NCBI GenBank assembly: GCA_965655095.1
Contig: OZ296656.1
Span: forward strand, 74,400,001 to 74,464,000
Origin: Haplodiscus bocki
Lineage: Eukaryota
Length of the DNA: 64,000 nucleotides
Direction: 5' to 3'
The translations under genes and the position numbers were made by a program. Numbering within the stretch: the first letter of the stretch is position 1; each line of letters opens with the position of its first letter. The notes under the pieces are model-generated. The model had not been told where the DNA came from. It saw nothing but the letters and a program-made list of their open reading frames with translations, and made no database searches. Of this stretch, positions 800 to 63,856 are shown piece by piece.

Positions 800-871
800 T
801 GCGACAAGTGAGCATCGAACTCACGACCTTAAGATTATGAGACTTACGCCTGCCGTCTGCGCCATTGTCGC
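800..871 (-). tRNA. tRNA-Met(CAT)-like A-monomer copy with a 1-nt D-arm deletion; probable pseudogene
   Basis: Minus strand reads GCGACAA TG GCGC AGACGGCA GGCG TAAGT CTCATAA TCTTA AGGTC GTGAG TTCGATG CTCAC TTGTCGC A. The acceptor and T stems pair perfectly. Confidence 0.75.
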
Positions 872-39249: not shown

Positions 39250-39354
39250 ATTGAGAGTCTTCCTGCAACAAAATTGGGTTCCCGCAGAGGCAGTGGATCT
39301 TTGGGCAACACAGGAAGTCAGCCTCGGAACTTGCTGCTTCTGGACGAGACACAA
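39250..39354 (+). CDS. Probable exon of the coiled-coil protein gene (IESLPATK...LLDETQ)
   Basis: tttag acceptor and gtaaat donor flank 105 nt open in phase 0/0, compatible with the next exon. There is no homology support. Confidence 0.5.
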
Positions 39355-39454
39355 GTAAATATTAAATCATTTTTTTCTCAAAACATTCGTGAATCCACTG
39401 AAAAATTAGTTATTGTACGTATTTGTAAATGATTGCAATATAGTTATAGATAAA

Positions 39455-39692
39455 AAGAAGATCGGCAGAGTAACGAGAATGCATTTCGAGAATAAATGTC
39501 ATCATGAGGTAAAAATGATGTAAAAAACGAACCACATTTGATGTAGTGTCTTGAAAAACACAAGCAACGTTGGAAACGAGAGAGATGTTTACACATCATA
39601 AAACACAAGTGACGGCACTGTTGGGCTCCCTTCAGAACTTCAATAGAAGCTCTTTGCTTCGGTATTCATCCCTGGTGTTGATAGAAGGATTC
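39455..39692 (+). repeat. Dispersed ~240-bp repeat, copy 1
   Basis: Clearly alignable to 46878-47112 (atgcatttcgagaataaat...gacggcactgttggg...ccctggtgttgat). Confidence 0.85.
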
Positions 39693-39859
39693 TTATCGGC
39701 AATATGCGGGGCGTTCAAGGTCATTAGAAAGGAAGAGTTGGTATGAGTATCAATTGATTGCAATATATTTCTGAGCTTTCAGAGATATAGAATTTAGCTC
39801 TACTTCCCCTTTTTTAGCCATGTGTTAGACGACAGACAAATGTAGATGGAAATCCATAA

Positions 39860-40150
39860 GAGTTTTTCTAGTGAAACGGATCATGGCACCGTTTCCAAGA
39901 TCTTGGCAGGATCTTAGCATGACTGGTATGATCTTGCACGATCATGGCAAAGATCTTATGTGTTTATATGTATTTTGGCAAGGGTTTCACGATTTCTTGG
40001 TAAGTTGACAAGGCTGGCAAAATTAAGTTTGCATCCTAAGATCTTTATAAGATCGTGGCCATGCATCTTGACTGTCATACACCATACATCTTGACCAGGC
40101 TACTATGCTTTTCCATGCATCCTTACAAATCTCCAGTCTTCCTGGAACCA
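39860..40150. mobile_element. Decayed CATG/GATC-rich MITE-like relic
   Basis: Repeated gatcatggca, gatcttggca and catgcatctt motifs resemble the 60372-61164 element; the ends are not defined. Confidence 0.4.
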
Positions 40151-41989
40151 AAGCTCCTTTTTTAAGAGAAAGTTTTTATTTTAAAAAATATAAATTAAAT
40201 TTTGAAACCTCTAAATGAGAGGTTTCATGCCCTAGGTGAGGAAAAATACATTTCTTGCAAGATCTTGATAGAGAATGTATAGTTCATGCATATTCTTCCA
40301 AGATTCTTGCAAATAATAGGTATCTTGCAAGACTCTTATAAGTATCTTGCAAGGAATGTATTGTCGCACGTGGTAGGGGTATTGAAAGTCTAGTATTTAC
40401 TTAGTTGTGCTGGCGGTTGACTTAGTCAGCACTGCTGCGTGGTAGTGACGGCTATTATTTATAAGTCTCAATAGTGTGCCTTGCTTAACCGTGCGAACAA
40501 AGGGATTGAGTGAATTCAAGCAAGGACTTGTGAGCTATAGCGGGGGAAGAATACAACGGAAAGTTAGATTATCAGTGAAGGTATTCCAATATGTCGAATT
40601 GTGGAAAGGGAAATGACTGCACGTACGCAAGGCGGAATTGCTTAGCTCCGTCTAAAGCTGTAAGCGTGGAATAGCACAGGGAAATTCGCCATATGGTCTT
40701 TAATGCTACACTGTTCAGTTAATCTTTCCTTTCTATTTCATCTTCACATTAGCTTCAATACGATTCATATAAACTTTCAATTTTTCCTCTTTATTAATCA
40801 ATTTCAATTTTAAATCACACCGTAGACAGCAGAAATTATTCAGCAAGAAGTCAGAATATTAAACGAGGGGTTAAATAGGGGATGCCACAACCATTATAAC
40901 AATAATTAACATTAAATTTATTTCACTTTAGGAGTGAAGATGCAATAACATTAGCTAATTCAGACCACTTTAATTCAGTCTGAATTAATATTATAAAATG
41001 CAATCAACATCAACCAATTCAGGCTACTTTAATTTATCCTGAATAGAAGTTATGAAATTAAATGTGACGTTGAATTTATTGAATTTAATTGAATTTAGAA
41101 TCTATAAAATAATGAACAGAAATTGGACTCGTTCAATTAAGTCCAATAGAATTATAAAGTAAATTATTACAATTAAATTCTTGGACTATTCAAATTTACT
41201 CCGAATAAATCTTGAAATTATAAATTAATCTTATAAAACATCAGAATTAAAGCTAATCCACATCCACAACTGCTGCTGGAAATCTGAGAATAAATCAAAA
41301 CGTTTCACATACACCATTTTACTTTTCTGACCAGTGCAAGTGGCGAACAAGTCCCGTCTTATCTCTGGTCGGCTTTTTGTAGCCCGCCATTTTACGTTTG
41401 CTTTTACGTCTAGCTAAACCACGTCTCTCACTAGATAGGCTAGGGTAACGGGTTAAAAAAGACTAGCCCCTGTTTTAGTCCCAAGCTGGATAAGCCAGTC
41501 TGTAGGGAAAGGGGGTTCAAATTACATGCATTTTACATTACATGCATTTTACACTACTCTTAGTATTAAAAAAAGGACCGCGGTATCGGGTCTTAATCGT
41601 AAGCTGGTATTTAGTCACCTGCCGATTAACAGTCCGGGCCCACGGGACACCAGCAATAAATAAATTTTCTTCTCTTTTATCTGCGACCAAGGCATACGTC
41701 ATAAGGACTGCCAATAGGTCCTGAATAATAAATATTTCACTTTTACCAAGTAATAATTAAAACTAAGTCCTAGCAAAAAGGGGAAAAATTCACAAAAAAG
41801 GGATTTTAGAAAAATGGAAAAGTCACAAAATGGGCCACGGTGCGGTGGCTGCACGCTGCTACTGGCGACTAATCCTATATCAACTTCTAGCCGGACAAGC
41901 CTCTGCTAGGAACCGTAGTCGAAACAAACGGAAGTCGTCGTGGATTATGTAGGTGCTGCTGGTAGGATGAAAGCAGTTTGCTGTTGATG

Positions 41990-42116
41990 GTCGTTTTTGC
42001 TGGTTGCTGCTGCTGATTGCTGCTATTGATTGCTGCTGCTGGTTGCTGGTGTTGATTGCTGCTGCTGGTTGCTGCTATTGATTGCTGCTGCTGGTTGCTG
42101 CTGTTGATTGCTGCTC
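41990..42116. repeat. 26-bp CTG/CAG-rich minisatellite (ttgattgctgctgctggttgctgcta), about 4 copies
   Basis: Read directly; the unit length is not a multiple of 3. Confidence 0.85.
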
Positions 42117-42117
42117 A

Positions 42118-42505
42118 AAAAGTCTTTGAATATTTCCGGGTTTATGATGATTTGCGGCTAAGACAAATTTGCAGGCGAATAAGTCTTTGAATATTTTCGG
42201 ATTCTTGATGATTTGCGGCTAAGACAAATTTGCAGGCGAAAAAGTCTTTGAATGCCTTCGGATTCTTGATGATTTGCGGCTAAGACAAATTTGCAGGCGA
42301 AAAAGTCTTTGAATGCCTTCGGGTTGCTGATGATTTGCGGCTAAGACAAATTTGCAGGCGAATAAGTCTTTGAATACCTTCGGGTTGTTGATGATTTGCG
42401 ACTAAGACAAATTTGCAGACAAAAAAGTCTTTGAATATTTTCGGGAGATGATGAAAAGTCTTTGAATTTTTTCGGGTTGTTGGTGAAAAGTCTTTGAATT
42501 TTTCC
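42118..42505. repeat. 61-bp minisatellite, 5 full copies plus partials
   Basis: aagtctttgaat...gatgatttgcggctaagacaaatttgcaggcgaa repeats with a 61-bp period. Confidence 0.95.
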
Positions 42506-42592
42506 AGAATATTGATGGGAGAGAAGTGGAAGAGAGGTTCGCCTCGGGGAAGTAAGCTAGAAAGCGAAAGAATATTATGGCTGTGCGCCGGT

Positions 42593-42600
42593 TATTTATA
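42593..42600 (-). promoter_or_regulatory. Candidate LTR TATA box
   Basis: gTATAAATAacc on the minus strand lies ~620 bp into the putative LTR, downstream of duplicated cttcgtgactagtcgttgNgccaata motifs at 42900-42980. Confidence 0.4.
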
Positions 42601-43255
42601 CTCAGCTTACAAAATGGCCGCCAGTTTTGACGAGAGCCAATAGGATCATTTGGCAAGAAATGTTGAGCGGGAAGGTTGGTTCAGCAAAGTAAAAATTGCA
42701 GCCAAGACAATTTTGGAATTGTCTTAGAATATTCCCGTCCGCGGAAAGAGGGAATTTTAGCTAGGCAAGGAGGGAGAGAAAGCAAGGAAAGGGATTTAAA
42801 TAAAGGGAAATAAGTATGGCCGCCGTCCAGTAAGCGAGTAAGTAATAACTGATCAAGCCGCTTTCCCGCACCAGCTACGGAACGAAGTTATGACGGCACC
42901 TTCGTGACTAGTCGTTGAGCCAATAGCGTAGTTGAGCCAAAATGAAATTATACTTCGTGACTAGTCGTTGTGCCAATAACGTTGAACCACATTACAACGC
43001 TTTAGAAATTTTGCTTTTTCCTTCCTTTTGTGCAATTCCAATCCTTCAGCTTTCGTTTATACTGCACGCCATTTTATCAACAGCAGCAATTCCCAGGTTA
43101 GTCAATACCATCTGCAGTTCTCTTGTTAAACATTATTCATTTCCTGTTTAATAGCTTACTGCACGTATTTAAGAAATATAATATATCTGTTTAAGCGTTA
43201 GCTATAACGCGACAACTCACCGGGGTTAAAGGGATAGAAAATTGATTGGGGGGTT

Positions 43256-44479
43256 CTATAGAAGGTATGGTCGGAGTGCGAAAGGTGTGGCGCCTTCAAG
43301 GTTGGGTAGGTCAGTGAATTTTTTTTCCAAATACAAAGCGTCATATAAAAGAAAGTTTTCAGTTTTGCTGAACATCTTGCTGTGCGGAAAGAAGTTGAAG
43401 TTCATTAGGGTAGGTACTGGTTCTCTGGTAGGTCTTCGAAAGGATAACTTCTCGGAGGGTGCGAAGGTGATAGTCCACGTATTCTGGGGGTCGAGTTGGT
43501 CGCGGACTGAAAGATGAATCGTTTTGGGGAACGGCCACGTCAATAAACCATCGTAGTCGCCAGGAAATGAGGCGAACATAATTGAAGCGTGATTTCCAGC
43601 GGCAGAATCCAGACCATATCGGTAGAATTGAACAAAAAAATTGTAGCCGTAGGGGCGTGTGCGATAGACTGGGCTATTGTAATGAGTACTGGGGTCTTTG
43701 GCAGCATTTTCCTGTCGAGCAGAAGATTTAGCGGTGTCGAAGACCAATTTCAATGAAGTTAATTTCCACAAGATAGTGCTTGCTCCTCCAGACTCCAGGG
43801 CTCGGATTCTATCATAGAGAAAGGCGAGTTGAGATCGGTGAATAGATGCAATTGTCTCACGACTTTCCCTTGCCTTGGTAATTTCTTCTTCCAGTTGTCT
43901 GACTCGGGTTTCTAAATCCAGAGAAGGTCCGGATGTTGTTAGGTTTGATAGGAAAGCTCGCGATGGTTCAGTTGGCTGAGATCGAGACGGAGTGCTCGAA
44001 GTTCTTTTCAAGGTAATTGTGACCCTAGGCTTCAATATTTGGATACTGCCTAGGGTACTCGAGTCTTGAAAAGCAACAAAGCTTGGTGGGTCAACTGTAA
44101 AGGAAGCAGGAAGTGAAGAAGATGATGGTTCATGTACTTGGCGGCGCAATTGGGTTAGCTCATCTTCAAGTCGGCAATTAGTGGTGCACAGCTTAAGGCG
44201 TTCATTCTTCTCAGTGTTAAGATCCACTTAGAATTGAGCCACTTGTTGTTGAACTGCGTGGAGGTAATGGAACTGCTTGATATTAGCCAATGGAAAGGTT
44301 TGGATTAGGGGCTTCGTTTGTTCCAGTGTTTGTTCTGATTTTATTTTAAGTTGGTTGACTTGACTGGTTAATAGATGCAACTGCTCTGATACTATAGGGC
44401 TATTGGAATCCGGAGAGGTTTTAGGATATTTAGTCGGAATTGTAAGATCAATAATATCTTAGGAAGTAGATGCATCCAT
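43256..44479 (-). pseudogene. Intronless coiled-coil + TRAF-C (MATH) domain ORF, 407 codons before the terminal stop, with two in-frame TAA stops
   Basis: The C-terminus has TRAF-type motifs ILWKL, SPVYRTRPYGYNF, GLDSAAGNHASI, PGDYDGLLTWPF and SFRRP. The frame extends upstream of the listed 323-aa ORF to an ATG at 44479 (MDASTS*DIIDLT...VAQF*VDLN), with stops at 44459-44461 and 44228-44230. No RING or zinc fingers are seen. Confidence 0.88.
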
Positions 44480-45570
44480 TTCTGTCAGCAACTCAGGGCG
44501 ATATATTGTGAATAATCGTGAGCAGGTCGTCGGCTTGAATATGGGTGCGTGTGGATTCAGTGTCATTCGACGGGCTGTACTTCAATAGCTGACAGGGGTA
44601 CCACAAGTCTCTGTGATGACAAGACAGTATTCTGAATAGTATATTCCTGCCTTTTGTGATCCCAAAATACAATTTCCAAAATACAAGATTCTTGTAAGAA
44701 ATGCATTTTTGTTCGACTAAGGTACTTCGACTGATTGTAGTTCCTCAGAAACGAAGTCTCCGATTTTTGTTCATTTTCAGGCACTCTTGATTTGACGCCA
44801 CTCGATTATCCGCCAGTTCGCAAAACCGTGCCAGAAATGACACGTTACAAAATTTGTACTTCCTGAATTACCGCCAAATTCACATATCCATCAGCCCCAA
44901 AAAATCGCTAACAAGATGTTTTTCAAGGATGAACTAATTTTTTTCGTAAACGACAAATGTGAGTGAGATAAAATTCTCCTTCGTAGAAATTAAAGATGTA
45001 AAACGGACAAAGGTTTTCCAAACAGTTTATCTCGAAGATAATCGGATATCTTTTCGAGATTGCTGTCAATTTCATGTACATTTATGCATCTACATCGATA
45101 TTTCGGTCGATATAAAACTCCAGAGGCAGAAATAGTTTCCCTGCCATTTCGTACATTTGCCATGTTATTGCTTTAACGGACTATAGTGAGAACCGAGAGT
45201 GCACTGTAATTGCAATCCATTACGCTTGCACCATTAATTAATCTATGAACTAATTTTTAACAATCTGGTGATTAACTGATTGCAATTAATTGCAAAGTAT
45301 TTGGTTGCAATTAATTTTTGATGGTGGGAACACGGGAAAATTCGATTACTATTTGAACGTGTGTGGCATACTGAGTCATAACCAGAATCTAAAAACAGTT
45401 CATCAAAATATTTTGCATTCTTTTCTTGATATTATGAGAACGACATTAATGAGAAAAATCACAATAGAAATTATCTGGCAAAAGCGAGAGAACTGGAAAC
45501 AGAAAAATAAAATGTCAATTCTCTATCTCTCTGGGTTCGCAATGCTAATTTTAAATAAATCTCAATCCAG

Positions 45571-45744
45571 GCACCGGAAATGGAAGCTGATGACATCATC
45601 AATACAGTTGAAGAAGCAGTGGCTGTCGAGAGTGTACCAACAGGTCTACAGGCTGCTCCACCCCCTAAAGAAGACCACCAAGCGATGATTCATCAATTGC
45701 CAATGAATGCTCCTCAGATAGATTTCATAACAATGGCCGAGAAG
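45571..45744 (+). CDS. Exon of coiled-coil protein gene (APEMEADD...TMAEK)
   Basis: ccag acceptor, gtttgt donor, 174 nt, phase 0/0, protein-like composition. Confidence 0.75.
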
Positions 45745-46877
45745 GTTTGTACCTACAGTGTTTTTGATAATATTTTTTCTCTGGCGAGCGGAACGAAGCC
45801 TATTATTGTCCGCCTCAGGACGTCAAAATGGATGTCATTTTTTCCCTGTCCCATGACTTGCCTCTCTGTTTTTCGATTAGAAGTAAAAACGTGAGTGCAC
45901 AAACAACTTTTAGTGGTCGCTCCCGAGGAAAAACCGATTGTTTTGGTTACTCGGTTTCAGTTTTGAGGATCACGTCAAAATGTCAAGATTTGATTAGCTT
46001 ACTTGCTGTTTCTAATTGTCCCCAACCCAAAGTCGCGTAACCACGTCAATATGTACAAAGTAGAATGGATATAATATTCCAAGCAGTGTGGAACGTACTA
46101 AAGAGCCTCATGATTTTTTGGCATTCTGAGACAAAAATGTGGTAGTCCCCCTTTGTTTGCCTCAATTTCCTGAAAACCAATTTTCGAAAACGTTAGAGAG
46201 TTCTCCCTGTAATTTTCTCAGCGTTGTGAAGCAAAACTTTCCGACAAAACTATCTTGATATGTTTTTTGTTTCGCCTAAATTTTTGCACTCGACCGTTGT
46301 ATCAATTTTGTTGCTTCGATACTAACCTCTATAACGCGGTAACTTGATTTCTGGTGGTAACGAATCTTTTTGATGGGAAAGTTGATGCGAAATGTTTACC
46401 CACAGTGATCGAACGGTCTTTTTTTCGAAAAGGCGAGTTTTGTATATTGCAAGTCAAAAAGTTGTATCGACATCATACCATCGTTGTAAACTAGCGTGGA
46501 AACACCATGACTAGTTCAAACTTTTGATATGTTGCCCGACTTTCATCAAACGAAACCTTTATTGCTCTGGGAATTCTGAGAAACTTTTGTTACTGAAAAT
46601 TTTTGGTGAAATCTGCAGTTTTGGCAAAATTGAGCTCTAAAAATGTCACTTCTGCATTTCGAAGAGTGCTGGAGAGACAGCTTTTTGACGAGCACTATAA
46701 AATCTTCGACTATAAAATTGTAATAGACAAATTTGACTGTCTTTCTGTTTGCTTGATTTTTTCTGACTTTTCTTCCGGGAAAATCAATTTATCACCAGTT
46801 TTGTTTGAACCTCTTGCATATGTAGGTCAAGGTATATGAGCGGGGAATGTGAAGTTCTTAATGTTTCGTTACATATA

Positions 46878-47112
46878 AAAAAAGATCGGCGGAGTAACAA
46901 TGCATTTCGAGAATAAATTTCATCATCAGGCAAAAATGATCTAAAAAACAAAGCACATCTGTTTAGTATCTTAAAAAGCAGAAGCGAAGTTTGAAACGAG
47001 TGAGATGTATACACATCGTAAAACACAAGTGACGGCACTGTTGGGCTTCCTTCAGAGCGTCAGTAGAAGCTCTTTGTGATCGGTATTCATCCCTGGTGTT
47101 GATGGAAGGATT
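46878..47112 (+). repeat. Dispersed ~240-bp repeat, copy 2
   Basis: Same-orientation match to 39455-39692. Confidence 0.85.
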
Positions 47113-47193
47113 CGAATTAGCTTTGTGAGAAAAGTGGTTAAATATGTCGTCTATGTTTTTCAGTTGGCTTTTTCAAGGCTAGTGTTTTTGCAG

Positions 47194-47303
47194 GTAGCAA
47201 TTGAAGAGAAGTACGAGAAAGAGATGGACGAAATTAAACAAAAAATAACAGAAATGGAAACTCAGCTGGAAGATCTACAAGAAGAAAAGAACAAAATTAC
47301 TGA
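47194..47303 (+). CDS. Exon, coiled coil (VAIEEKYEKEMDEIKQK...KIT)
   Basis: tttttgcag acceptor, gttagt donor, 110 nt, phase 0/2, E/K-rich heptad-like sequence. Confidence 0.85.
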
Positions 47304-48414
47304 GTTAGTTGGAATTATTAACCTTTAATAATTTCAGTTCATTTAATGTTCAAAACGGAATTTTATTTCGCAATAACTATTGCCTGGCCTTGGTTACCTC
47401 TGAGACAGTCCTAACTAAATCAGTATCCAATCACTTTTAATTACTCTTCTTTTCTCTCATGTTTGCGTATGGTTGAACTCACATGCCAAGACATCAAGAA
47501 TATTTTTTGCCAAATGTGTAAATTTTTAGGGAACTTTACAAAATTAGAAGTAGTATAGCATTTTGTTTGATTTGCAACGGGTCAATCCTTGGATTTTTTT
47601 GAAATTTAATTGGTATTCACCCGTTGAAATATTCTACGAAAGCAAGGATGGCCCCATTCATTGTAAACCAGATAAAACGATATGCCCTCTTTAGATCAAT
47701 ATTTTTTACAGGAAGCATTATGACTCACGTTCAGAAGCGGTGCTTTTCCCAGTTATCCTGGGACTTCTTATTTTGAGTTATTTTTTGTATAAGAAGAGTG
47801 TCCGACAGTTACAGTGCATTTATTTTGTCACCGTGAAAAATTACGAATATTGAACGTGTTCAGACTAATGAATTTAGTGAAATATTCCCCATCAACTATT
47901 GCTGGAGTTCCATTATTATTCGCACGGCGAGACGGCGAATATATTTGTCATGCCCCCTGCCTATAGCAAAACTTTGAAGTTGAATGGGCTTAGAATGTTT
48001 GTGATACACCCTTTGATTTACATCGAAAGTAGAAAAGGCAAAAATTTTCAGCAAAACTCTTGCTGACCTTCGAGGTTTTTCAAAATTACCGAAAGCCATT
48101 TTAAAAATTGTGGCGCCCCCTTCACTGACACCAAACTTGAATGAAACTAAATATTAGACCAAAATTTTTCAAAAGGCAAAAAAACTTGATGATTTTTGAG
48201 CCTTACTGACAGCGCCGACTGGGGCCGGTCCCGGCTTTTTTCATCGACACTTCCTTTCCTTGATATGAAATTCATCGGCGTTCACGAATGTCCGGCAAAT
48301 AAGAGCTCATATTGATTTTTGAAATTTTGGTCATAAAAAAGTGCTCCCTGGCGGGCAAATGTGGCACCGTTCAATATTATTTAACATATGAAGATTGATT
48401 GATTTTTGTTTCAG

Positions 48415-48514
48415 AGATCTGGCTGCTGAAAATATGAGCAAGCAGAAACTGATGATCCAGCTGGATGCCGAAAAAGCTAGAAGCGTGAACAACCAAGAAC
48501 GAGCGGATGACAAG
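48415..48514 (+). CDS. Exon, coiled coil (DLAAENMSKQK...RADDK)
   Basis: tttcag acceptor, gtcgat donor, 100 nt, phase 2/0; its first base completes a GAA codon with the previous exon. Confidence 0.85.
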
Positions 48515-48984
48515 GTCGATATTACTTTTATCACTTTATATTCAATCACTGCGTATGTGTCAATCTTTAATTTATCATTTTCCGTATATGATATCATAAC
48601 AACCTTCAAAATATTAGCATGAGCATAATATGTGACAGAAAGTTCATTCTTTGTTATCTATCACTGCGTAAATTTTCCAGCTTCTCTGTTTAAATTGAAG
48701 TGCGCGTGACACAAGAATGCTTCGTGTTCACAAATTGTTGGTTCGAGTCTTACCTGGAGCAAAATTTTTAATATTTTACCATTTTTCTTGCTCAGTTGAT
48801 TCGGTTTATAAATAGACTAAATGAGCACCATCGTTGTGGATTCGAAACCCACCTCTTCCAACTTTTTGCCAATCTAAGCGTTTTTTAGCTCAGTTCATAT
48901 TCGGCGCCTTTGAAACTTTATTTTTTGGTCACTGAACAGTGAGATACTTGAGTTTGTGAGTTTAATTGCTGGATTCTCTTGCAG

Positions 48985-49148
48985 ATTCGTGAACTGAAAG
49001 AGAAAGTGGAAGAGAAGGAGAGTTTTGTAAAGCACCTGCAAGGTGAGCTGAGAGCGAAAGACGAACAAATCAGTGAGTTGCAGGAGAAGATCCACTCCAG
49101 AGAAGTTCACAACACGAAACTGCAGGCCGATCTTGACCACACGCAACA
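48985..49148 (+). CDS. Exon, coiled coil (IRELKEKVEEK...LDHTQ)
   Basis: ctcttgcag acceptor, gttagt donor, 164 nt, phase 0/2. Confidence 0.88.
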
Positions 49149-52100
49149 GTTAGTTCCACTTCTGATATTTTGCAACCTTATTATTTTCCGCCCATATTTT
49201 GAATACATATAAAGTTATTAATTCAACATTCAGGTTTTTAGATCAAATTTGCCTATTACACAAAGGTGCACGGAAAAAAAATTATTTCACCATTCTGTTC
49301 GAACTGTCCAGTAGAATGCGTTCAGCATAGTGATCTTTCTCCAAAAAACTTTTGTGCCAAAATTTGTTTTTTTTTTGCGGAAAAAAATGAAAAATTCGAT
49401 TTGAGATGCAATTTTGAACTTTTTAAAAACTTTTTTTTAAAGTATGAGTTGCGGGATTTTAACGTTTCTTCCATAATTGGGAATGCGGAAAAATATCCAG
49501 GAGTCAGCTGGGCGTGTTGTTAATTCTCTGAGACTAGCTGTACCGATGATCGAATCCTGTGCTGGGCCTCGAGCATTCATTATTTTATATAATTTAGTGT
49601 ATAATTAGATAAAATACGTTGAATTCTCAGAAATTTCAATTAACCCAGGTGATTGTTTCTTTTGAAGCCTTGACCCCAAATTTGAATTGGAAAGCGCTAA
49701 GTAGTATTTACGAAAAGGGATGACCGAAGCAGCTATAATTGTATCGATTTTTTTTTTCATTTTAATATTTTCCGCCCATATTTCATGTATGGAAAGAAAA
49801 TCATTCACCCAACATTCAGAATTTGACAATTGCACGATGAAGCAAAAAAGCAGGAAAAAATGGTGCGCCTATTTGTTCTAATGTGGTTGTAGATCAATAT
49901 AGTTACATTTTTCGAAAAAAAATGGTTTGTCGAATTTAAGAGTTTGTTTAGAAACTCGAGCTTTGTGCATTTTTCTGACTTTTTTTGTTCGACTTACCAT
50001 TTTAACGTTCGTTCTCTAGTTTGGAAGGGTAATTTAGAAGAAAATATCCCGGACTTTGCCGGTCGTCTTTTTTCCAATAATTATCTGAGCGTTGTTTTTC
50101 GCTTCATATTCTAAAACACGTTTCCTTGCGAATTTGATCATGAACTTGCATGTTTCCAAACTAACTTTCGAAAATTTTTCATAATTCAGGCAAAAACTTA
50201 GATGCTTATATTTTGTCTGACGCAGGCAATTTTATGAAATTCTTTTATGCAACATGAAAAAATTCCATGAACTTTGTCTGAAACTTACAAAATATGACTG
50301 CAGTCGCTGCAATCTCAGTTTAGAAGATTTTGTAGGAATGTTGGAAACTATTCCTTGCACGTTTTACAGAAGAGGTGCAATCAAATTTTTGTAATGGTGA
50401 TTGATAACTTATTTATTTCGCGGAATTTTCCACTGTGTCACTGAAAAGGCTTGAAATGGAACATATGTCTGCATTTAGGTGAAACTAGGAAGTTTAAACA
50501 ATCTTTTGCCCGCTTTTGTACGGAAAAAACCGCCGAGGGTTTGCAGTTAGCTTTCGGATACGGAAGGATCGTTGGCACAGATTAGTTGCTGGAAACCAGG
50601 ACACATTTCTGAGAGAAATGCCTCTGTATTCGACAATTGCGTTTTAGTTCTAAAATTTATTGTACCAAGTCCATTATATTGCGAACCGCAGCTGCTTCTT
50701 CGTAACAGTGTACTGACGTTTTTTCGCGGCTGTTGAGATCTTGTCCATCAATCAAAAACAGGTAAGTGATGGTCCTTTTGTCAGGGTGTCAATTAAATAA
50801 CGGGAATTACCAACAGGTACATGCTTCTCATTGCAGGTTTTTTACATTCAAAAATGGATTTTGATATAATTTGGATTTTTGTATGAACGTTGGGTGAATA
50901 TATTTGAACGAATTTTTTCTCGGCTAAACTTAATGATTGTTTTCCGGTTAACACAACTCGCATTGGAATTATTTTTCTCCGTTATTGCGTGCAAAGTTCC
51001 GCAGAGTTTTTTACGATCCCGAAAACTTAGCGTTCTGTGATAATTTCGGCGAGTAATTAACGTTCAAAATTGAAAAACATGGAATTTTTACCATTTTCTA
51101 AAATAAATTTTTGCCAATCATAGCTTCATCTGACCATCTATATCCGACATACTCTAAACCTTTTCTGTGCATATATTGTCCGGCTATTCCAAGCCATCCA
51201 CTGGTTGATTTTGTTTGGAAAGGCCGTTTTTGCGAAATTTTTTGCACCAAGTAACAACCTTCTCTGTCTTTACATTATTCAATTTATTTTTGAGTTGAAG
51301 GGTTTTTCGTTAAAGCGAATTGGTGCGAGGGTTTTCATTTTTTCGACAAATATTCTCAATAGGATCATAAGTGACCTGGGAACAGTTTATCGTGTCGCGG
51401 AAAATTTTTCTCGGCGAGTTATAAGCAAAAAACGTGGAAATTTTGGGTGCTTTTGGAGGACATTGGCCATAGTTTGGTATTTCTTTGACTCCGCAGGCTC
51501 CAGATTCACTTAGAAATCACTAAAACAGCTGAACCACAATTATTAGCGAGTTTTTCAATGACATCAGTATTATCCCAATTTCTCTGCACCACTTCTCCGA
51601 AAATTAATTGTACCATGTTCAAGCAAAAATTCTCTCAAGTTATTGCTCCTCTATAATTCTTTAGGAACTTCAAGCCGGAGGTTGAAAAGATTCCCGCTTG
51701 CAGTGAAGCTTCAGACACGGGATCTTTTATCTTAGAGCGTCACTCCTCTCCTTCGCAAGCCTTGCACTGAACATATTAGCGCCTATGTTTTTATTGGAAG
51801 AAATAACTTCTTTCTTATTTAATAATTGAACAACGAAATTTGAAGAAACCCGTTCAATTTCTCGCCAGATTCATTTTTTTCGAAGCAGCTACTGATAGCT
51901 GTAAGGCTCATAAGAGAAAAGCGGAGCCAAGATCAGGTCTCACGAATTCGATGTTTTCGCAGAGGAATGTAGCACCTTACCCTTGTTAATATTTAGAGCT
52001 TCCAAGAAAAAAGAAGTCCATTTAGAGTTGGAAAAACCCAATCGGACTAGTTGTTTCAAATAACGGACACTAAAAATTTCTTAAAGCTTCCCAATGCAAT

Positions 52101-52289
52101 TTGAGATTTTGAGAGGGGAAGTCTGAAAAAACTGCCGCTGCTGCTTTGCAGTCTTACTTAGCAAAGAGACGTTGAATGAGCCGGAAAGTTATGCCTTGCG
52201 AAGTCTAATTAGTGAGAAAAACACTTTCAACGAACATCATAGGGAAAAATGTAATTTCTTCAACAAAAGTTGAGAGAAATTGCGATGAA

Positions 52290-53400
52290 GTGAGAAGAAT
52301 CCTCAGAAGCTCCAATCAATGAGTAGCTCAATCAGCAGCGAATGGACCCAGTCTGACCTGTACAAATTGGAGAACATTCCCAATGACTATCGCTGGTGAA
52401 GCCTCCTTGATATTTTGAAGTAAAACGTATTGCGAAAGAGTCCAAACTAGACTATCTCATTTACTCCTTCAAAACTCCTCGCACGGAGTAGTTGAATCAG
52501 CGCCCGAAGGGCCCTTTCCAAACAGTAGTTGTCAGGAAAAAATCGGACGAACGACACTAATAGATACAGTTTTGATGCTTCAAAGACAAATTTAGATAGT
52601 AAAGGTGCAAACTAGGCCATCGCCACTACTGTTTGAAGACTGCTGCTACCAAGTGATTGAATAAACTCTGGATGAACCCAATCTGACCAATCATCGCTGA
52701 GAAAAAGTTTCAACGCGCAGCTCAAGCAAAATCGTCTTTGATTCTACGAAAAATCAAAGGGCAGAGAAACTTCCGGAAGCGGCTAGTTGAATCAATGACG
52801 CCGTATGGGCCCAATTTGACCACTAATCATTGTAGGAAACACTTTTAACGACCGACGCAAAAATAGACATCTTTGATTTTCAACTAGAAAAACAAGAAAG
52901 TACCTCCATGATTTTTCAAACTCGCGTCTAGGTCTTTCGCATTGAAAGTTGAAAAAGATTATCCCATGTCCTCAGAAGCTTCAGGTAACGAGTAGTTCAA
53001 ACATCTTTGGATGAAATCAATCTGGTTAGTATAGAAAAATGAAAACAATTTTCAAGAATACGGCTCCAAAAAACTTCGGTTTCCTTTAATACAAGATACA
53101 AGATAACATATTTTGTAAATGTCGGGAAAAGAACGTCCCAGCTGCTCGTTAGAAGCTCCAGATAACGAGGTAGTTGAATCGGCACTGGGTGGACCCGATT
53201 CGATCAGTACTTGTCAAGAAAACGAATTTTACCGGAAATCGCAGTAAAAACATCCTTAATCTATCGAGTACAAGTTACATTGTTCTTGCAATGAAAGCTC
53301 AGAACAAACCACTCTGGCCACTCCTCAGAAAATCCAGGCAGTTAATTGTCGTTTCTCAATGGTCATTGAGAAAACGGTTTTAACGATTAATGCAAGTAAA
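52290..53400 (+). repeat. Old, highly diverged tandem repeat with a ~170-180 bp period
   Basis: The motif cctcagaagctcca...gagtagttgaatca...ggaccc recurs near 52300, 52470, 52650, 52780, 52970, 53150 and 53325. Confidence 0.65.
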
Positions 53401-54220
53401 AACATCATCAATTTTTCGATCACAATCAAAGATTTTTTGCAGAAGAATCATGAAAAATGCCGTTCCTTAAGCATGTTTATATTGTACGTCAACAACGTTT
53501 CTTTTCAATTCATCAAGAAATGCAGCTGTCAGGTTTCTTTTTACTAGTGATGTCTTTAATTTAGCCTGAGTTAATGACGTGGTCACTTGAGCAAACGCTT
53601 CTGGGGTCTAAGGTTGCCGATTGGAGCCCTACAAGAAAGGAAAAATTCTTGGAATAGAGTCTCGGAAAAATCTCGGGTTTAAACGACAAAAAAAGTTAGA
53701 TCTGTCTAGTCGACCGTAATAGACTTGCTTCGCTACGCTACACATGTCTAAGGATCGGTAGCTGATGTGGAAAATGCATTTGCTGGTCAAATCGCTGTAA
53801 ATGGGTATCATACTTGAAGGTTCTTGAGAGGTAAACATTGCCAAACCGCCAAATACAAACTGGAAACGGTTCTAAACGGAGCGGTATTTTATTTAAAAGC
53901 AGTTAGCGCTAGAGGAGTGGCCTATCGAATCTGCCAGTACACGCGACTCGAAAAAAACACGCCAATAATGGTGCTTTTTTATAGGCCCGATTAAAAATGA
54001 GCAGACCACCAACTATGAGGAAATGTCGAAACCGTCATTCTTCTTGAACTTTGTAGCCTGTAATATTTCTGGGCGTCAATGTGTAGTCTTTATTGAAAGG
54101 GGGAGTTTTCTCATTTCTACCGGAAGACCACGAGCGTGAACAGTCGGCTTTCAGATTTTTTTGAGAAATACTGGGTGGTAACGGCCAAACAGTTCCAAAT
54201 GAATTTTTTTTGTGTTTCAG

Positions 54221-54275
54221 AGTCGTCACAGCGGAAAAAGAGCTTTTACATCAATCCAACGCCGAGAGACTTAAG
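54221..54275 (+). CDS. Short exon (VVTAEKELLHQSNAERLK), absent from the ORF track
   Basis: tttttgtgtttcag acceptor, gtgagc donor, 55 nt, phase 2/0; it exactly bridges the phases of the flanking exons. Confidence 0.8.
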
Positions 54276-54476
54276 GTGAGCTGTCAATAACAGTAACCCA
54301 CACTTTATTTATCTCGAAATTCGTTTTTTCTTACCTCGAAAACAAGGCTCTGATCTTGGTTTTCTGTATGTCTTGTCGATATCGCTGAAAATATGGAGAA
54401 CTAAGCGTTTCTTAGCGAAATATCTTACCAAATTTTTGCCAGGAAATCTCCACTTCCAAGAAACACAAGCGGATCT

Positions 54477-54654
54477 AGAAAATTTTCAATGGGATGTCTA
54501 CTTTCAAATAGGGGGCTCAGCAAGGGAAAATTCACAAATTGCATGATTTTACGCATTTTGCAGATAGAAAATTTTCAATGGGATGTCTACTTTCAAATAG
54601 GGGGCTCAGCAAGGGAAAATTCACAAAATTACATGATTTTAGGCATTTTGCAGA
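54477..54654 (+). repeat. 88-bp tandem duplication
   Basis: tagaaaattttcaatgggatgtctac...cattttgcaga occurs twice, nearly identical. Confidence 0.95.
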
Positions 54655-55216
54655 TGACTTTGTCCTAATTTTTTTCAATGGGAGCTGGGAGAGGAGCCTT
54701 ACGCCTCTTCGCTCTCCCCCTGAATCTGCTCTTTCCAAGGACCATTAAATAATATGGACATGACCAATGAGGTTCCAAGCAATGGGTGTAAATTTCATTC
54801 AGGAATGCAATTTTGGATTCAAAATATCCCGTTTTTGTTGAACCGTTTTTGTCAGAATTTTGTGCTCTCGAAACAGCTTTCAGTTTTAACCGAATGGATG
54901 GTAAATAGGTTTCACCGGAATATCTACAAAACAATTTGTCAAGCCCTTCTTAGTTTTACCAATTGTTCCAAAATTGTTTAAAAAAACCTCAGCAGGTCTA
55001 TGAGAAAATTTTGGGATATTAATACCATATTTCTTCTGACAAAAAATTGTGGTTCCCTTCCCCCTGAGCAACGTTCCTTTCAGTTGGAAGCTTAATTAAT
55101 TTTCCGTATGGCGCGAAGATATCTTCTCGGAAAGCAAGTCCAGGAGTCAGCTAAGTATCTTTCGAACAATGTGTGGGGAAATAAAACGAGACTTAAATAT
55201 CTCATTTTATTTCTAG

Positions 55217-55396
55217 TTGCAATCTGAAGTGAAACAACAGCAAGAGTCTATGAATGAGATGTACCAGACCTCTGTAGACTACAAACGAGATATTGCTCTG
55301 GCCGAGGCAAGACTCAAGGCCAATGAGGACGCTCGCAGAGGCAACGAAACTGAAAAGGAAGACCTGAAAAACAAAATAGAGAAGCTCAGACAGCAG
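55217..55396 (+). CDS. Exon, coiled coil (LQSEVKQQQ...KLRQQ); the gene continues downstream
   Basis: tttctag acceptor, gtttgg donor, 180 nt, phase 0/0. No stop is reached and no further exon was identified in the window. Confidence 0.87.
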
Positions 55397-56399: not shown

Positions 56400-57700
56400 G
56401 GTATTTGGAAACTATCATCCAGAAACTGAATATATTGATCAGCACGCTGGATCAATAAAAAAACTTCCACATAAATAGATACAGAGGCCGGAAGCATACA
56501 TCTGCGCAGTGGTGGAGTAGCGTTTTCTATTGCCGCTAAATGTCTCGAATGCGATGCTTTGAAACTAAACACCGGATACTTGACGGAACGTTTCAGATGC
56601 GGAAATATTCTTATTCTCGGCAGATCATGCATTAAAGCCCCTCTCCGCAGTTGCATTGCGTAAAGTCGATTTTTTCGGGAGTGCTGTAGTTACATCGAGG
56701 CCACGGTGATGTCCACATCTCCAAATTGGAAATAGGACGTCTACTGGTTGACGGTTTTTGTACGAAATGTGGGACGGCTCTCGTTTTCCTGACCATTTGG
56801 CCGTTTTACATATTTTCAAGAAGAGATCTCGTTGTCGCCCTATATTTTGTCTCCAGATCACAAGCACGTCCGTGGAGTGGTCACCAAACCTGTCTGACAG
56901 GGTTGTAAAGCATCAGGGGCAAGTACAGGGGGATGAAAACTCGAATACTCTCTGTTGTGTGCAGAAGGAAACTGTAAATCTTTGACGGGACATTTCAATT
57001 CTGCTTGTGGTATATGGCCGCGCATGGCAAAGTCTTGGAGATCATGTTAGTTTTGCTTGCTGAGTTCAAATGGAACAAAGTTCTCTGCTGTTAATTATGG
57101 TCATTTTTTGAATTTTCAATTGGAGATATTTGTCTTCCACGGAAAGGTTGTCTAGAAAATCTCGTCTACTTGTTGCTTGAGATTCAAAAGTATAACAGAA
57201 TTGCTTGATTTCTCTGAAGCTATAGCGATTCTGTAAAAGTGGTTCACAAAGTGCAGTTTCAATTCTAGCGGCCATATAAGCGGTTTGTTGAGATTTAACA
57301 GCCATCTGCTATTGATGATTTTTGAGGGGCGTCCAATTGTTCTGTCCAAAAAAAATCTGGAAAGATTCATCCAAAGTCTGGAATGCTTTTTGAAGAAAGT
57401 GTTGACGTTGTTCTTAGCAAGCGATTTTTAGGAAAATTGGAAGAAATCCGTCTTAAATGGTTCAGTGTTCGCACGTGGCTTGTAGGACCCTGGTGCAGGC
57501 ACAGGCCACTGCGTAGCGTTAAGTCGGTTAGTTAGTAGACCTAAGCATCCAAGAGAATAAACTCTCTGGCTTCTACGGTATTACCTACCCAGGGGACACC
57601 GCGGGGAAGCTGAGATTAATTTGTGACCTCCTCAACTGTAAACTGAATGCCTTTGAAATGTGGTGTTGCAACAAAATGCAACGTCTAAGACGGTGCTAGA
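56400..57700 (-). mobile_element. Decayed non-LTR retrotransposon fragment with zinc-finger and restriction-like endonuclease region (CRE/RLE-type)
   Basis: One minus frame at 56930-56520 reads CTCP*CFTTLSDRFGDH...RQRD...REP...RQPVDVLFPIWRCGHHRGLDVT...AE.K...G.*FQSIAFETFSG. This matches the CxxC..DxxGDH / RPADxxxPxWxxG..DVT / FxPxAxETxG pattern of RLE elements. There are multiple stops and the boundaries are approximate. Confidence 0.7.
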
Positions 57701-58785: not shown

Positions 58786-59594
58786 CCCTAATTGACAGAA
58801 AATTTATTTCTTGCAAGATATTGCAAGTTGAGAAAATCTTGCAAGAATCTTCCAAAAAATTTCAGTTCTTGCAAGATTCTTGGATGCAATGGCATTCTTG
58901 CACGATTCTTGCTAGAAACTGTGCTCTATCACAAGAAGGAAAATCTGGCAAGATTCTTGTGATAGAGCACAGTTTCTTGTAAGAATCTTTGCAAGATTTT
59001 CCTAACTTGCAAGAATCTTGCAATAAATAAATTTTCTGTGTACACATTATGTTTTGATAATTTATGCTTTTCACCAAAAAGCAGGCATAACCTACCATTA
59101 GAGGTAAAATTTGATGAACATTACACCTGTTGAACGTATTTTGTAATCGAATGTTTAAAAGCAACAGGGATAAGGAATTTTCTTTCTGGAATCAGATGTT
59201 TTGTAATGGCCTAATTTGTCTGGAAAGAAATACAAAATGAAACAATATTTGTGCGAAGTTACGTATCTCGTCCTTTTGGATAACATTAATTTTGTCGTTT
59301 TCTGAACCGGCGCGAAACGCGTGGTTCTGAAGCGACTGTTGGATTCCTAGTACATTTTTGTAGTGGAAAAGACAGAATTTACAAAAGTTTCTCATACGTT
59401 TTGCGATAAAAAGAACATTGAGAGCTTTAAGGTTTAGTCTGCAAGAATCTTGTAAGAAACCGTAAAATCTAGAAAAAAACTTGTGAGAATAAAGCGATTC
59501 TTGCAAGATTCTTGAAAGATGTCTGCAAGAATAATGCCTTGTCTTGCAAGATCTTGTACGATTCTTGCAAGAAGTGCTATCTTTGAAGTCAAGG
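58786..59594. mobile_element. CTTGCAAG-rich MITE, longer copy
   Basis: The ends ccctaattgacagaaaattta and gaagtgctatctttgaagtcaagg match the 63685-63856 ends in the opposite orientation; there are subterminal arrays of the palindrome (T)CTTGCAAG(A). Confidence 0.8.
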
Positions 59595-60371
59595 AGTATA
59601 ACTTGATTCAAGAGTTCAAAAGTGGTATGTTCGTTCCCTAGCCACGTGAGGTAAATGATGGTTGAAAATTTGTCCGGTTAAACTTGACACTTCAACAAGT
59701 ATCCTTCAAGTTTAATGTTATTCGACGATCGTTGTTGCCCATTGTTTCTCTGGCAAAACATCATGAAGCTCAATCCAAAACTCAAACTAATGAGAATATA
59801 CGGATGTTTCGGCAATATTCAGGAAAATTAGTAACAATTTTGACAAAACTCAAAATTTAATGGAGCCAATGACCCTCTGAACACTTGTTACTAGTCTGCA
59901 TTCTCTGAAGGCACCTGTCTCAGGGGTTCTTCTGAGGAGCATTGTTAATTATTATTATCCACCTGTATGGAAAGAAAATCATTCGTTCAACATTTATGTT
60001 TTTTTTAACATAAAATCTGCCAATTACAAGATCTTCTCATGGTGCACTGTCACTGTGAATAGCATGACGTCATCCAGAACTTGATTCTGATTGGACTCGA
60101 AAAAAGCGCAGGAAAGCTATTGGTATAACTAGTGTGACGTCATCAAATGATCGATTCTGATTGGACGAGACATGAAAGTGCTGGAAAACGTCAGCCAATA
60201 TGAACCACTCGCGCTTGTGAGTTACGGTGGAACTGCAAAGGTTATTTCGAATCTTGTGAAGAATGAACATTTTTGTCTGATTAGAACGGGCGCAAAATAT
60301 CCCAGAGGTAGCTGCGCATCTGGTCCCAGTTGTAGTACTGGCTACATCGGACAAACTTAACCAGGGCATAA

Positions 60372-61164
60372 CCCGGGTTGGAAAAACACGGCTGCCATGC
60401 CATGATCTTGCCATGATCATGGCGAAACATGGTCATGATCATGCCATGATGACCTCATGGCGGCCATGTTTCTTGGCATGGTCGTCATGATTCATAGCAT
60501 GATCATGGTATGATTACCATGTTTTCCATGATTCATACCATGATCATGGTATGATCATCATGTTTTCCATGTTTTTTTTTGAAAAATGGATTGTTTTTTC
60601 AATGTTTTCTCAAATAGTTGCTGCCTTGTACCATTATATGGCACAATTGACTGGCTTTATAGGAATTTACGCGTCCAAATTGACGAGTCAACAAAATTAA
60701 ACGAAGATTACTCCAGAAAGACTTCGAGTTTTCTTCAGTGATAACCAAACAGCAAGTTCTTATTAAACAACAGTTTCAGTAAAACATACATATTACAGCT
60801 TTGTGTTATTTTTGGTAATCTCGAATTTTTGGGAGAAAGATCCATATTATTAAACGTCTTTCGGGTAGTTTCTGATGAGTTCGTTCAATATATTCCATAT
60901 TAAAAAGTAACGTACTACCTACCACCTGCTTACTAATTAACAAAGTTGGTTGAATAATTAGCGTCCTGACTACGTTATAACAATGACCATGGTCACCATG
61001 GCATGATCATGCTACTTTCCATGACGGCCATGCTGTGATCATGCTATATTTCATGATGACGATGACATGATCTCACCATGATCATACCATGGCGAGTATG
61101 AATCACCATGATCATACCATGTCATAGCATGATCGACATGTTTGACGATGGCTGTCAACCCGGG
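60372..61164. mobile_element. CATGATCATG-rich MITE
   Basis: TIRs CCCGGGTTG / CAACCCGGG enclose subterminal CATG-palindrome arrays at both ends and a non-coding core. Confidence 0.85.
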
Positions 61165-63684: not shown

Positions 63685-63856
63685 CCCTAGACTAAAAAGT
63701 TAGCACTTCTTGCAAGAATCTTACAAGAAGCCTTGCAAGATCTTGCCTGACAATGCATTATTCTTAAAGACATCTTTCAAGAATCTTGCAAGAATTGAAC
63801 TTTTTTGTAAGAATCTTGCAAGATCTTGCAAGAACTAAATTTTCTGTCAACTAGGG
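63685..63856. mobile_element. CTTGCAAG-rich MITE, internally deleted short copy
   Basis: Termini are CCCTAG...CTAGGG, and both halves align to the ends of 58786-59594. Confidence 0.85.

Follow-up and report, generated by a model that had tools for sequence, protein, structure and literature searches.

The window analysed here, a 64-kb stretch of DNA, contains a TRAF-like gene that lies directly beside a long LTR-like block, and this raises the question of whether gene and block are parts of one mobile element or unrelated neighbors. We conclude that the locus is probably a broken copy of a widespread LTR-type element carrying two extra genes. The features on which this reading is based are collected in Table 1.

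Table 1. Features of the locus, in positions of the 64-kb window (a dot marks features given no strand).
Feature	Position	Strand	Remarks
Candidate exon of the host gene, before the insertion	39250..39354	+	exon-chain reading
MITE, left half	40230..40361	.	TCTTGCAAGA units
LTR-like block, putative 3' LTR	40362..43214	minus	2853 bp, TG...CA ends, 6-nt inverted match
Tandem repeats in the block	41998..42504	.	13/26-bp x 9/4, 61-bp x 5.4, 31/32-bp x 2.6
Putative U3/promoter part	42560..43214	minus	4 CCAAT-type boxes, YY1-like GCCAT sites, TATAAA at 42600 and 43061
Spacer, ORF2 stop to block	43215..43255	minus	41 nt, pyrimidine-rich, ends GGTGAGT, not a canonical PPT
ORF2 (TRAF ORF)	43256..44566	minus	ATG at 44566, stop 43258-43256, 436 codons
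TRAF-C/MATH domain	43328..43684	minus	Pfam PF21355 match, codons 295-413
PAM2-like motif	44528..44563	minus	may contact poly(A)-binding protein; ORF2 codons 2-13
ORF-X, last 37 codons and stop	44563..44676	minus	reading-frame test, relatives
MITE, right half	44684..44722	.	44678-44683 match neither side clearly
Six candidate host exons, coiled-coil protein gene	45571-45744, 47194-47303, 48415-48514, 48985-49148, 54221-54275, 55217-55396	+	exon-chain reading

The TRAF gene, ORF2, is a dead copy at this locus: its start codon is intact, and two in-frame TAA stops are found at codon 36 (44459-44461) and codon 113 (44228-44230). The encoded protein would consist of the PAM2-like motif, a helical or coiled-coil region, a Ser/Pro linker, a coiled coil and the TRAF-C domain. 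Judged by its sequence, ORF2 has the C-terminal TRAF-C/MATH domain of the TRAF family, as Pfam TRAF-mep_MATH was matched with E=1.5e-16 (residues 182-300 of a 323-aa piece). The domain and the coiled coil (TRAF-N) directly before it were aligned with solved TRAF5, TRAF4, TRAF1, TRAF3 and TRAF2 (best E=2.4e-14), the coiled coil being covered by the TRAF5 and TRAF1 alignments. The match of the N-terminal motif to Pfam PAM2 stayed below the curated cut-off (E=0.02, 15 bits against 20); the pattern was present in 65 of the 76 proteins of family A extending to the start, and in 33 of 52 ORF2 proteins of family B (both families are described below). A RING pattern was found in none of 261 proteins, and Pfam gave no match to RING or TRAF zinc fingers in the relatives P0007, P0182, P0252 and P0048. 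An earlier note on this DNA had described an intronless, RING-less coiled-coil and TRAF-C ORF with two TAA stops; this was borne out by the ORF map, Pfam and the matches to solved TRAFs, and the RING-less state was seen in intact relatives as well. Aligned groove segments differed from those of solved TRAF4 and TRAF5, so binding of ORF2 to TNFR- or TLR-type motifs is not to be assumed.

ORF2 comes second in a cassette of two genes: the TGA stop of an upstream frame, ORF-X, overlaps the ORF2 start codon as ATGA. The ORF-X frame is coding, with 18 of 29 changes being silent (29% expected, p=2e-4). Whole ORF-X spans about 200-220 aa with an acidic N-terminus, a basic stretch and a predicted SH3/Tudor-like barrel. 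Of 22 matches, P0128 and P0137 were dropped as unrelated repeat proteins, and the 20 true relatives, all of at most 280 aa, were consistently short separate ORFs. The break of the element falls in ORF-X, which had been missed earlier; the former description as 5'-truncated thus holds for the element and not for the TRAF ORF with its intact start. Fold searches with ORF-X yielded only weak rows of SH3/Tudor/chromo-barrels and integrase C-terminal domains (best Z 4.1, rmsd 2.7, 45 aligned), Foldseek gave no match with E < 0.001 and the ESM Atlas no usable one. ORF-X may be a detached integrase tail, a candidate reading that draws on these predicted folds. Residues upstream of family B ORF-X are compatible with a pyrimidine tract and an AG acceptor, as deduced from the peptides. 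At the level of sequence features, ORF-X and the PAM2-like motif, both overlooked earlier, point to a possible role in RNA-related processes.

Relatives were counted as single-frame ORF calls, possibly from more than one assembly, which means that spliced relatives would be missed and that the figures are not copies per genome: 328 matches to ORF2 were obtained among 4183 candidates (family A). The best 120 of the 328 were 66-92% identical, and their member counts total about 470 sequences; 117 of these 120 aligned in one piece, 42 were single full-length ORFs from the start to the end of TRAF-C, and 11 extended into DNA matching the flanks in the window. Family B, with the same layout, gave 522 matches among 1309 candidates, and the 119 that were examined comprised 61 ORF-X-like, 54 ORF2-like and 4 sequences bridging both. 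Between the families, ORF2 is 34% identical. One weak locus in bacterial or archaeal genomes (62% over 29 aa) was discarded as a chance match.

That this copy is intronless and broken would be explained if it had simply arisen from a host TRAF as a processed pseudogene beside an unrelated repeat. However, hundreds of relatives share both the ORF upstream and the junction downstream, no poly(A) tail follows ORF2, and intact relatives show no remnant of a RING or zinc finger; because the flanks are shared among relatives, we regard the pseudogene explanation as refuted and give it next to no credence. The case that the earlier note had set against its own reading, a single-copy ORF or one never linked to the block, was not what we observed: the ORF is multicopy and intronless, and its junction with the block recurs.

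Another reading is that the relatives form a TRAF family of the host which is not mobile, was enlarged through segmental or tandem duplications and includes some functional immune genes. In 52 near-full-length copies, shared variants amounted to 0.34 per site in TRAF-C, below the 0.82 of the linker (Fisher p=0.0014), and private variants to 1.1-1.5 per site across the five main regions. A TRAF-C that is depleted of shared changes while private changes are even is apparently the pattern expected for a selected gene of a mobile element. An apparently constrained TRAF-C would suit a host family too, as would the many full-length ORFs, and large planarian TRAF expansions have been described as host gene families (PMC6109357). 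The even spread of private changes, the many truncated or frameshifted relatives, the stop/start overlap of the two ORFs and the position of this copy in a MITE within an intron, antisense to a candidate host gene, argue against such a family, which we consider improbable.

The insertion site was examined by removing positions 40362-44683, which rejoins the TCTTGCAAGA-unit MITE without a gap and colinear with a copy at ~63690-63856, in agreement with the insertion into a MITE that had been proposed. Similarity to relatives stops at ~44677, and the limit of the element had been placed too far out, at 44683. At the present MITE junction no TSD was found; the outer element end is missing. Around the insertion, seven plus-strand exons bounded by AG/GT form one open frame of 296 codons, with the insertion in the intron 39355-45570; this chain is one of 7488 open combinations, chosen near exon positions that were placed by eye, which leaves the host gene plausible rather than proven. 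The claim of an antisense position inside a host intron is therefore supported insofar as an open exon chain brackets the insertion, and shares the plausible rather than proven standing of that gene.

The inner end of the block, the junction at 43214, recurs in all three relatives whose tails reach it (P0048, P0058 and P0233), one of them from family B, and the same spacer was read in P0039, P0048 and P0058. The ORF adjoins the block as had been reported, with 41 nt and not 42 between its stop and 43214. The TG...CA ends are likewise present, although the 6-nt terminal inverted match by itself is at chance level (38% of 1000 shuffles). Motifs of the U3/promoter part were weakly above shuffles (P 0.056, 0.034 and 0.11). 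The outer end at 40362 abuts the MITE half. No purine run of at least 11 nt abuts 43214 in this copy, and two relatives of family A have none there either; as no PPT was found there, the element is not filed as a member of the LTR retrotransposons. Neither a second copy of the block in the 64-kb window, this copy being truncated, nor a shorter LTR pair inside 40362-44683 was found. A TGG-type primer-binding site follows neither block end (the 5' end of the element is absent), and Rfam gave no match in the element. The block as a plus-strand 5' LTR was ruled out, as neither a TGG-type primer-binding site nor a self-priming complement of at least 7 nt was present. The absence of gag and pol from this copy, noticed earlier, was confirmed for the 64-kb window. 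None of 5376 candidates was an ORF2 fusion of 764-2180 aa with gag or pol, which by the search tool's own note is weak evidence, and Pfam detected no retroelement domain in any of the N-terminal extensions that were tested.

The lack of a detected PPT, TSD, second LTR and pol, and the clean 5' loss in a MITE without a gap, would also be compatible with the cassette being cargo of other mobile DNA (Penelope-like or DIRS-like retroelements, transposons of the cut-and-paste or rolling-circle type, integrated DNA viruses), the 2.85-kb block then being a terminal non-coding region; rotifer LTR and Penelope-like elements do have accessory ORF types in common (PMC5408684). We consider such cargo unlikely, given that both block ends read TG...CA with an inverted match, that the inner end is conserved between families 34% identical in protein, a boundary directly behind the last ORF being what a 3' LTR would give, and that the tail peptide of a family B sequence would allow for a run of purines ahead of the block boundary.

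ORF-X and ORF2 are neighbors overlapping stop to start, both free of introns and present in many copies in each of the two families, with a conserved boundary behind them. We hold with fair confidence that a decayed LTR retroelement has left its 3' end here and that its intact relatives bear a two-gene accessory cassette at the env position, membership being unproven. The element would have inserted into the MITE and later lost its 5' part. In intact relatives, with ORF-X/ORF2 at the env position, the cassette would be made from a spliced sub-genomic RNA and ORF2 translated by termination-reinitiation after ORF-X. ORF-X may then regulate the element by binding nucleic acid or chromatin, and ORF2 may, as a TRAF trimer lacking a RING, bind TRAF-type partners of the host but leave them unubiquitinated, presumably held on poly(A)-binding protein by its PAM2-like motif.

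A trimer model of ORF2 scored 0.79 (best control 0.22) and passed a mark that 21 of 30 solved pairs, but none of 23 single chains, attain, with contacts agreeing to at least 94% and pLDDT of at least 84; this pass may reflect the TRAF trimers already solved. The AlphaFold model of full ORF2 was unusable (pLDDT 39), and the ESM Atlas returned generic TRAF clusters only. If the element reading holds, ORF2 would most likely serve, as we tentatively propose, to dampen a stress, death or defence signal of the host in cells with an active element; scaffolding of the RNA of the element itself comes next and is conceivable with rather less assurance. The immune-modulating or dominant-negative action raised in the earlier note is hypothetical. 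It is also possible, and we state this with similar reserve as the first of these uses, that the relatives form an undescribed, diversified group of LTR retroelements in which two translationally coupled genes took the place of env, one an ORF-X that is Rev/CERV-like or binds chromatin, the other a TRAF with PAM2 but no RING. This pair would have been captured independently of the planarian Burro elements, selected in several lineages and become the source of most TRAF-C domains in the host genome, connecting poly(A)-bound RNA with the TRAF signalling of the host.

Elements of this kind, carrying a shortened form of TRAF, an immune-signalling protein of animals, may interfere with signalling in the host and raise the number of TRAF genes counted. 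If the element reading is true, LTR elements would have acquired TRAF-C in a second case of different build, suggesting that TRAF signalling is a recurring target of host-transposon conflict in invertebrates. Invertebrate TRAF expansions such as that of Schmidtea, with 99 MATH transcripts reported (PMC6109357), could partly be transposon genes, and the ORF-X/ORF2 family allows a direct test. The PAM2-plus-TRAF protein and the unclassified barrel of ORF-X are new candidate accessory proteins.

Among known systems, animal TRAF4 and TRAF1 resemble ORF2 in combining a coiled coil with TRAF-C, and TRAF1 is not known to have a RING. The ORF2 family profile scored highest with PDB 7ypc (E=2.4e-18), followed by TRAF4 chains (~1e-15), with TRAF6 lowest (~5e-4). 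ORF2 has no RING or zinc fingers, and it differs from these TRAFs in its N-terminal half, its changed groove region and its intronless, multicopy state. For ORF-X, the CERV protein of C. elegans Cer1, a small regulator made from a spliced LTR-element mRNA, offers a functional model by analogy only (PMC10309623). LTR retrotransposons of bdelloid rotifers carry captured, non-env ORF3 genes after pol; LTR elements usually express ORF3 from a spliced message of its own. These accessory ORFs resemble the cassette as separate spliced units, a state that is deduced for the cassette, but they encode GDSL lipases, DEDDy exonucleases and TM or coiled-coil proteins, with no TRAF in the main text (PMC5408684). 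The literature listings contained no PAM2-bearing retrotransposon protein, PMC6338049 and PMC13524379 made no mention of TRAF or MATH, and acoel genome papers made none of TRAF, which was not counted as evidence. The only precedent for an LTR element with TRAF in this literature was Burro; supplements, Repbase entries and subscription papers could describe the family. Burro (GYPSM1) elements are giant Gypsy-like LTR retrotransposons of planarians that carry MATH/TRAF-C, like the locus described here, a precedent that the earlier note had missed. According to PMC6431247, interference with apoptosis and ubiquitin systems has been proposed for Burro, and its TRAF-C lies inside or upstream of a 4,873-aa polyprotein with BIR, BCL2, ankyrin and env-like parts, or forms a separate accessory ORF in Dugesia tigrina. 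None of the Burro parts (gag, BIR, BCL2, ankyrin, env-like, pol) was detected by Pfam in ORF-X or ORF2. The cassette differs from Burro in its stand-alone TRAF gene of 433-453 aa just before the 3' boundary, its PAM2-like motif and its coupled ORF-X. LTR elements with TRAF-C are thus already known from planarian Burro, and it is the ORF-X/ORF2 layout that differs.

ORF2, the TRAF gene of the cassette, carries its TRAF-C/MATH domain in the final third (Pfam E=1.5e-16), preceded by a coiled coil that is alignable to solved TRAF5 and TRAF1; the RING has been lost. Its stop lies 41 nt from an LTR-like block, the putative 3' LTR, which contains internal tandem repeats and, close to its inner end, promoter-like motifs. 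With the insertion taken out, its flanks join without gap or TSD into a MITE that aligns end to end with a further copy elsewhere in the window. The whole insertion would lie within one intron of a coiled-coil protein gene, given a phase-compatible seven-exon chain that was picked among many open combinations and is a candidate, not proven. The earlier note's description of the locus and its domains therefore held except for the truncation point: the window copy ends within ORF-X, the gene upstream of ORF2.

Coordinates of the features in the window
Feature	Position	Strand	Remarks
ORF2	44566 (ATG) to 43256 (stop)	minus	436 codons; in-frame TAA at codons 36 and 113
End of window copy, in ORF-X	~44677
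LTR-like block	40362-43214		2853 bp; TG...CA ends, 6-nt inverted match
GGTGAGT	43215-43221	element strand	final 7 nt before block; consensus splice donor
Insertion	40362-44683
Host intron (candidate)	39355-45570	plus
Host gene splice donors (candidate)	45571-55396		5 of 7 start GTT or GTG, not GTA
Tandem array	1-36900		~962-bp units, each with minus-strand tRNA-Met(CAT) gene or decayed copy (40 blastn matches)
tRNA-Met of the array	800-871		acceptor stem has the 6-7 nt of block's inverted ends (43209-43215 / 40362-40367)
~250 bp repeat	39443-39692; 46868-47113		86% identical; both in host-gene introns
TCTTGCAAGA-unit MITE family, more copies	58786-59035; 59448-59594; 63688-63856
Block-end-like sequence	57464-57477		start shares 10 nt with the 40362 end; similarity stops there
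Second inverted element	~60370-61165		internally repetitive

Because its inner units share the same changes, the tandem array resembles a macrosatellite built from tRNA pseudogenes; ARAGORN calls just the first four tRNA-Met copies. The likeness between the tRNA-Met stem and the block ends is probably chance, and together they form no full primer-binding site.

A search with window ORF2, read through its stops, gave 328 matches from 4183 candidates. The best 120 were 66-92% identical, with member counts totalling ~470, which possibly pool more than one assembly and so do not give copies per genome. Among these 120 relatives, 117 align to the window as one piece, and 42 are a single ORF from the start through the end of TRAF-C. 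Lost stops or frameshifts extend 11 of the 120 into flanking DNA, nine upstream and three downstream, and all 11 match the window's own flanks. With 328 matches and common flanks, the TRAF ORF belongs to a multicopy family (family A) and is not a stray pseudogene, and the TRAF cassette is a real feature.

In the upstream extensions, 18 of 29 single-step changes were silent in another frame, against 29% expected (p=2e-4; three multi-step changes left out). This frame, ORF-X, closes with a TGA that overlaps the ORF2 ATG as ATGA. A 39-residue query from ORF-X retrieved 22 proteins, of which 20 were true relatives (69-280 aa). They run from an acidic N-terminus through a low-complexity middle and a basic stretch to a conserved C-terminal domain, with no Pfam family and no Atlas match. 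The last 50 residues are predicted to form a small beta barrel (pLDDT 85-95), for which Tudor, chromo-barrel, SH3 and retroviral integrase C-terminal domains were the best fold matches, all weak (Z at most 4.1).

One ORF-X relative, P0138, continues into a different downstream ORF. Its search gave 522 matches from 1309 candidates; the 119 others listed were ORF-X-like (61), ORF2-like (54) or bridged both (4). The full-length ORF2 of this second family, family B, which shares the layout of family A, has 453 aa and a TRAF-C, and is 34% identical to family A: 7/12 in the first residues, 5/43 just after, 10/67 in the linker and 76/161 in TRAF-C. Those first residues are a PAM2-like motif that scores under the Pfam cut-off; 65 of 76 start-reaching family A proteins have it, as do 33 of 52 ORF2 proteins of family B. 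In family B, read-through peptides point to stop and start codons that share a single base. Contigs of equal length suggest that both families occur within one assembly (database relatives P0113 and P0235) and that family B ORF-X and ORF2 lie on common contigs (P0176/P0192 and P0171/P0240).

By itself, the inverted match of the block ends would arise in 38% of shuffled sequences; the promoter-like motifs stand out only marginally from shuffles. Position 43214, the inner end of the block, is crossed by two of the 11 extended family A relatives. Three of five long-tailed proteins reach this junction and all three match the window there, including family B P0233, whose final five residues beyond the stop (GELSR) equal those of the window and P0058 across 43214; judged from these tails, 43214 is therefore a real, conserved boundary. 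Two family A relatives keep the donor-like heptamer before the block, and family B is consistent with it. The block-end-like sequence elsewhere in the window may be a terminus of some related element.

The region probably functions as the 3' end of an LTR retroelement would. It is not filed as a member, because no link to gag, pol or env was found (ORF2 gave no match of 764-2180 aa), no retroelement domain appeared in the extensions tested, and the window copy has a single block, with TSD and canonical PPT not found. That another kind of mobile vehicle carries the cassette is unlikely.

In 52 near-full-length family A proteins, chosen by us from the 120, private variants were even (1.1-1.5 per site across five main regions). 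For variants present in at least three copies, the rate was 0.82 per site in the linker and lower in TRAF-C (0.34) and the first helical region (0.35) (TRAF-C plus coiled coil versus linker plus N-terminus, Fisher p=0.0014). As a protein-level proxy, not dN/dS, from a set in which 90% clustering enriches for decayed copies, this is the pattern of selection in active lineages overlaid by neutral decay after insertion.

The cassette would be expressed via spliced RNA and ORF2 translated through reinitiation at the overlap, a process established for viral polycistronic RNAs; in family B, the peptide read from just before ORF-X is consistent with a pyrimidine tract followed by AG. In LTR elements separate spliced ORF3 messages are usual, according to PMC5408684. 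For an intact relative, the coiled coil together with TRAF-C gave a trimer model scoring 0.79 (best control 0.22; contact agreement ≥94%, pLDDT ≥84), on a scale whose mark 21 of 30 solved pairs attain, against 0 of 23 single chains; the model may reflect memory of solved TRAF trimers. TRAF4-type chains are nearest to the family profile and TRAF6 furthest, and the groove segments differ from those of solved TRAFs. We favour a ligase-less decoy that would damp host TRAF-type signalling and that the PAM2-like motif would tether to poly(A)-binding protein. Almost equally likely, ORF2 would serve the element's own RNA as a scaffold. By analogy alone, ORF-X could have a role like that of CERV, the regulator from C. 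elegans Cer1 (PMC10309623).

An LTR element with TRAF-C is a known idea, because the giant planarian elements Burro/GYPSM1 carry MATH_TRAF_C (PMC6431247); the planarian TRAF set is expanded, according to PMC6109357. The literature searched, supplements, Repbase and subscription papers aside, showed no precedent for PAM2, coiled coil and TRAF-C combined in one stand-alone gene that is coupled to ORF-X immediately before a 3' boundary. In Burro/GYPSM1, TRAF-C lies within a giant polyprotein or an upstream accessory ORF, whereas the window element carries it in a gene of its own, next to ORF-X by the 3' boundary.
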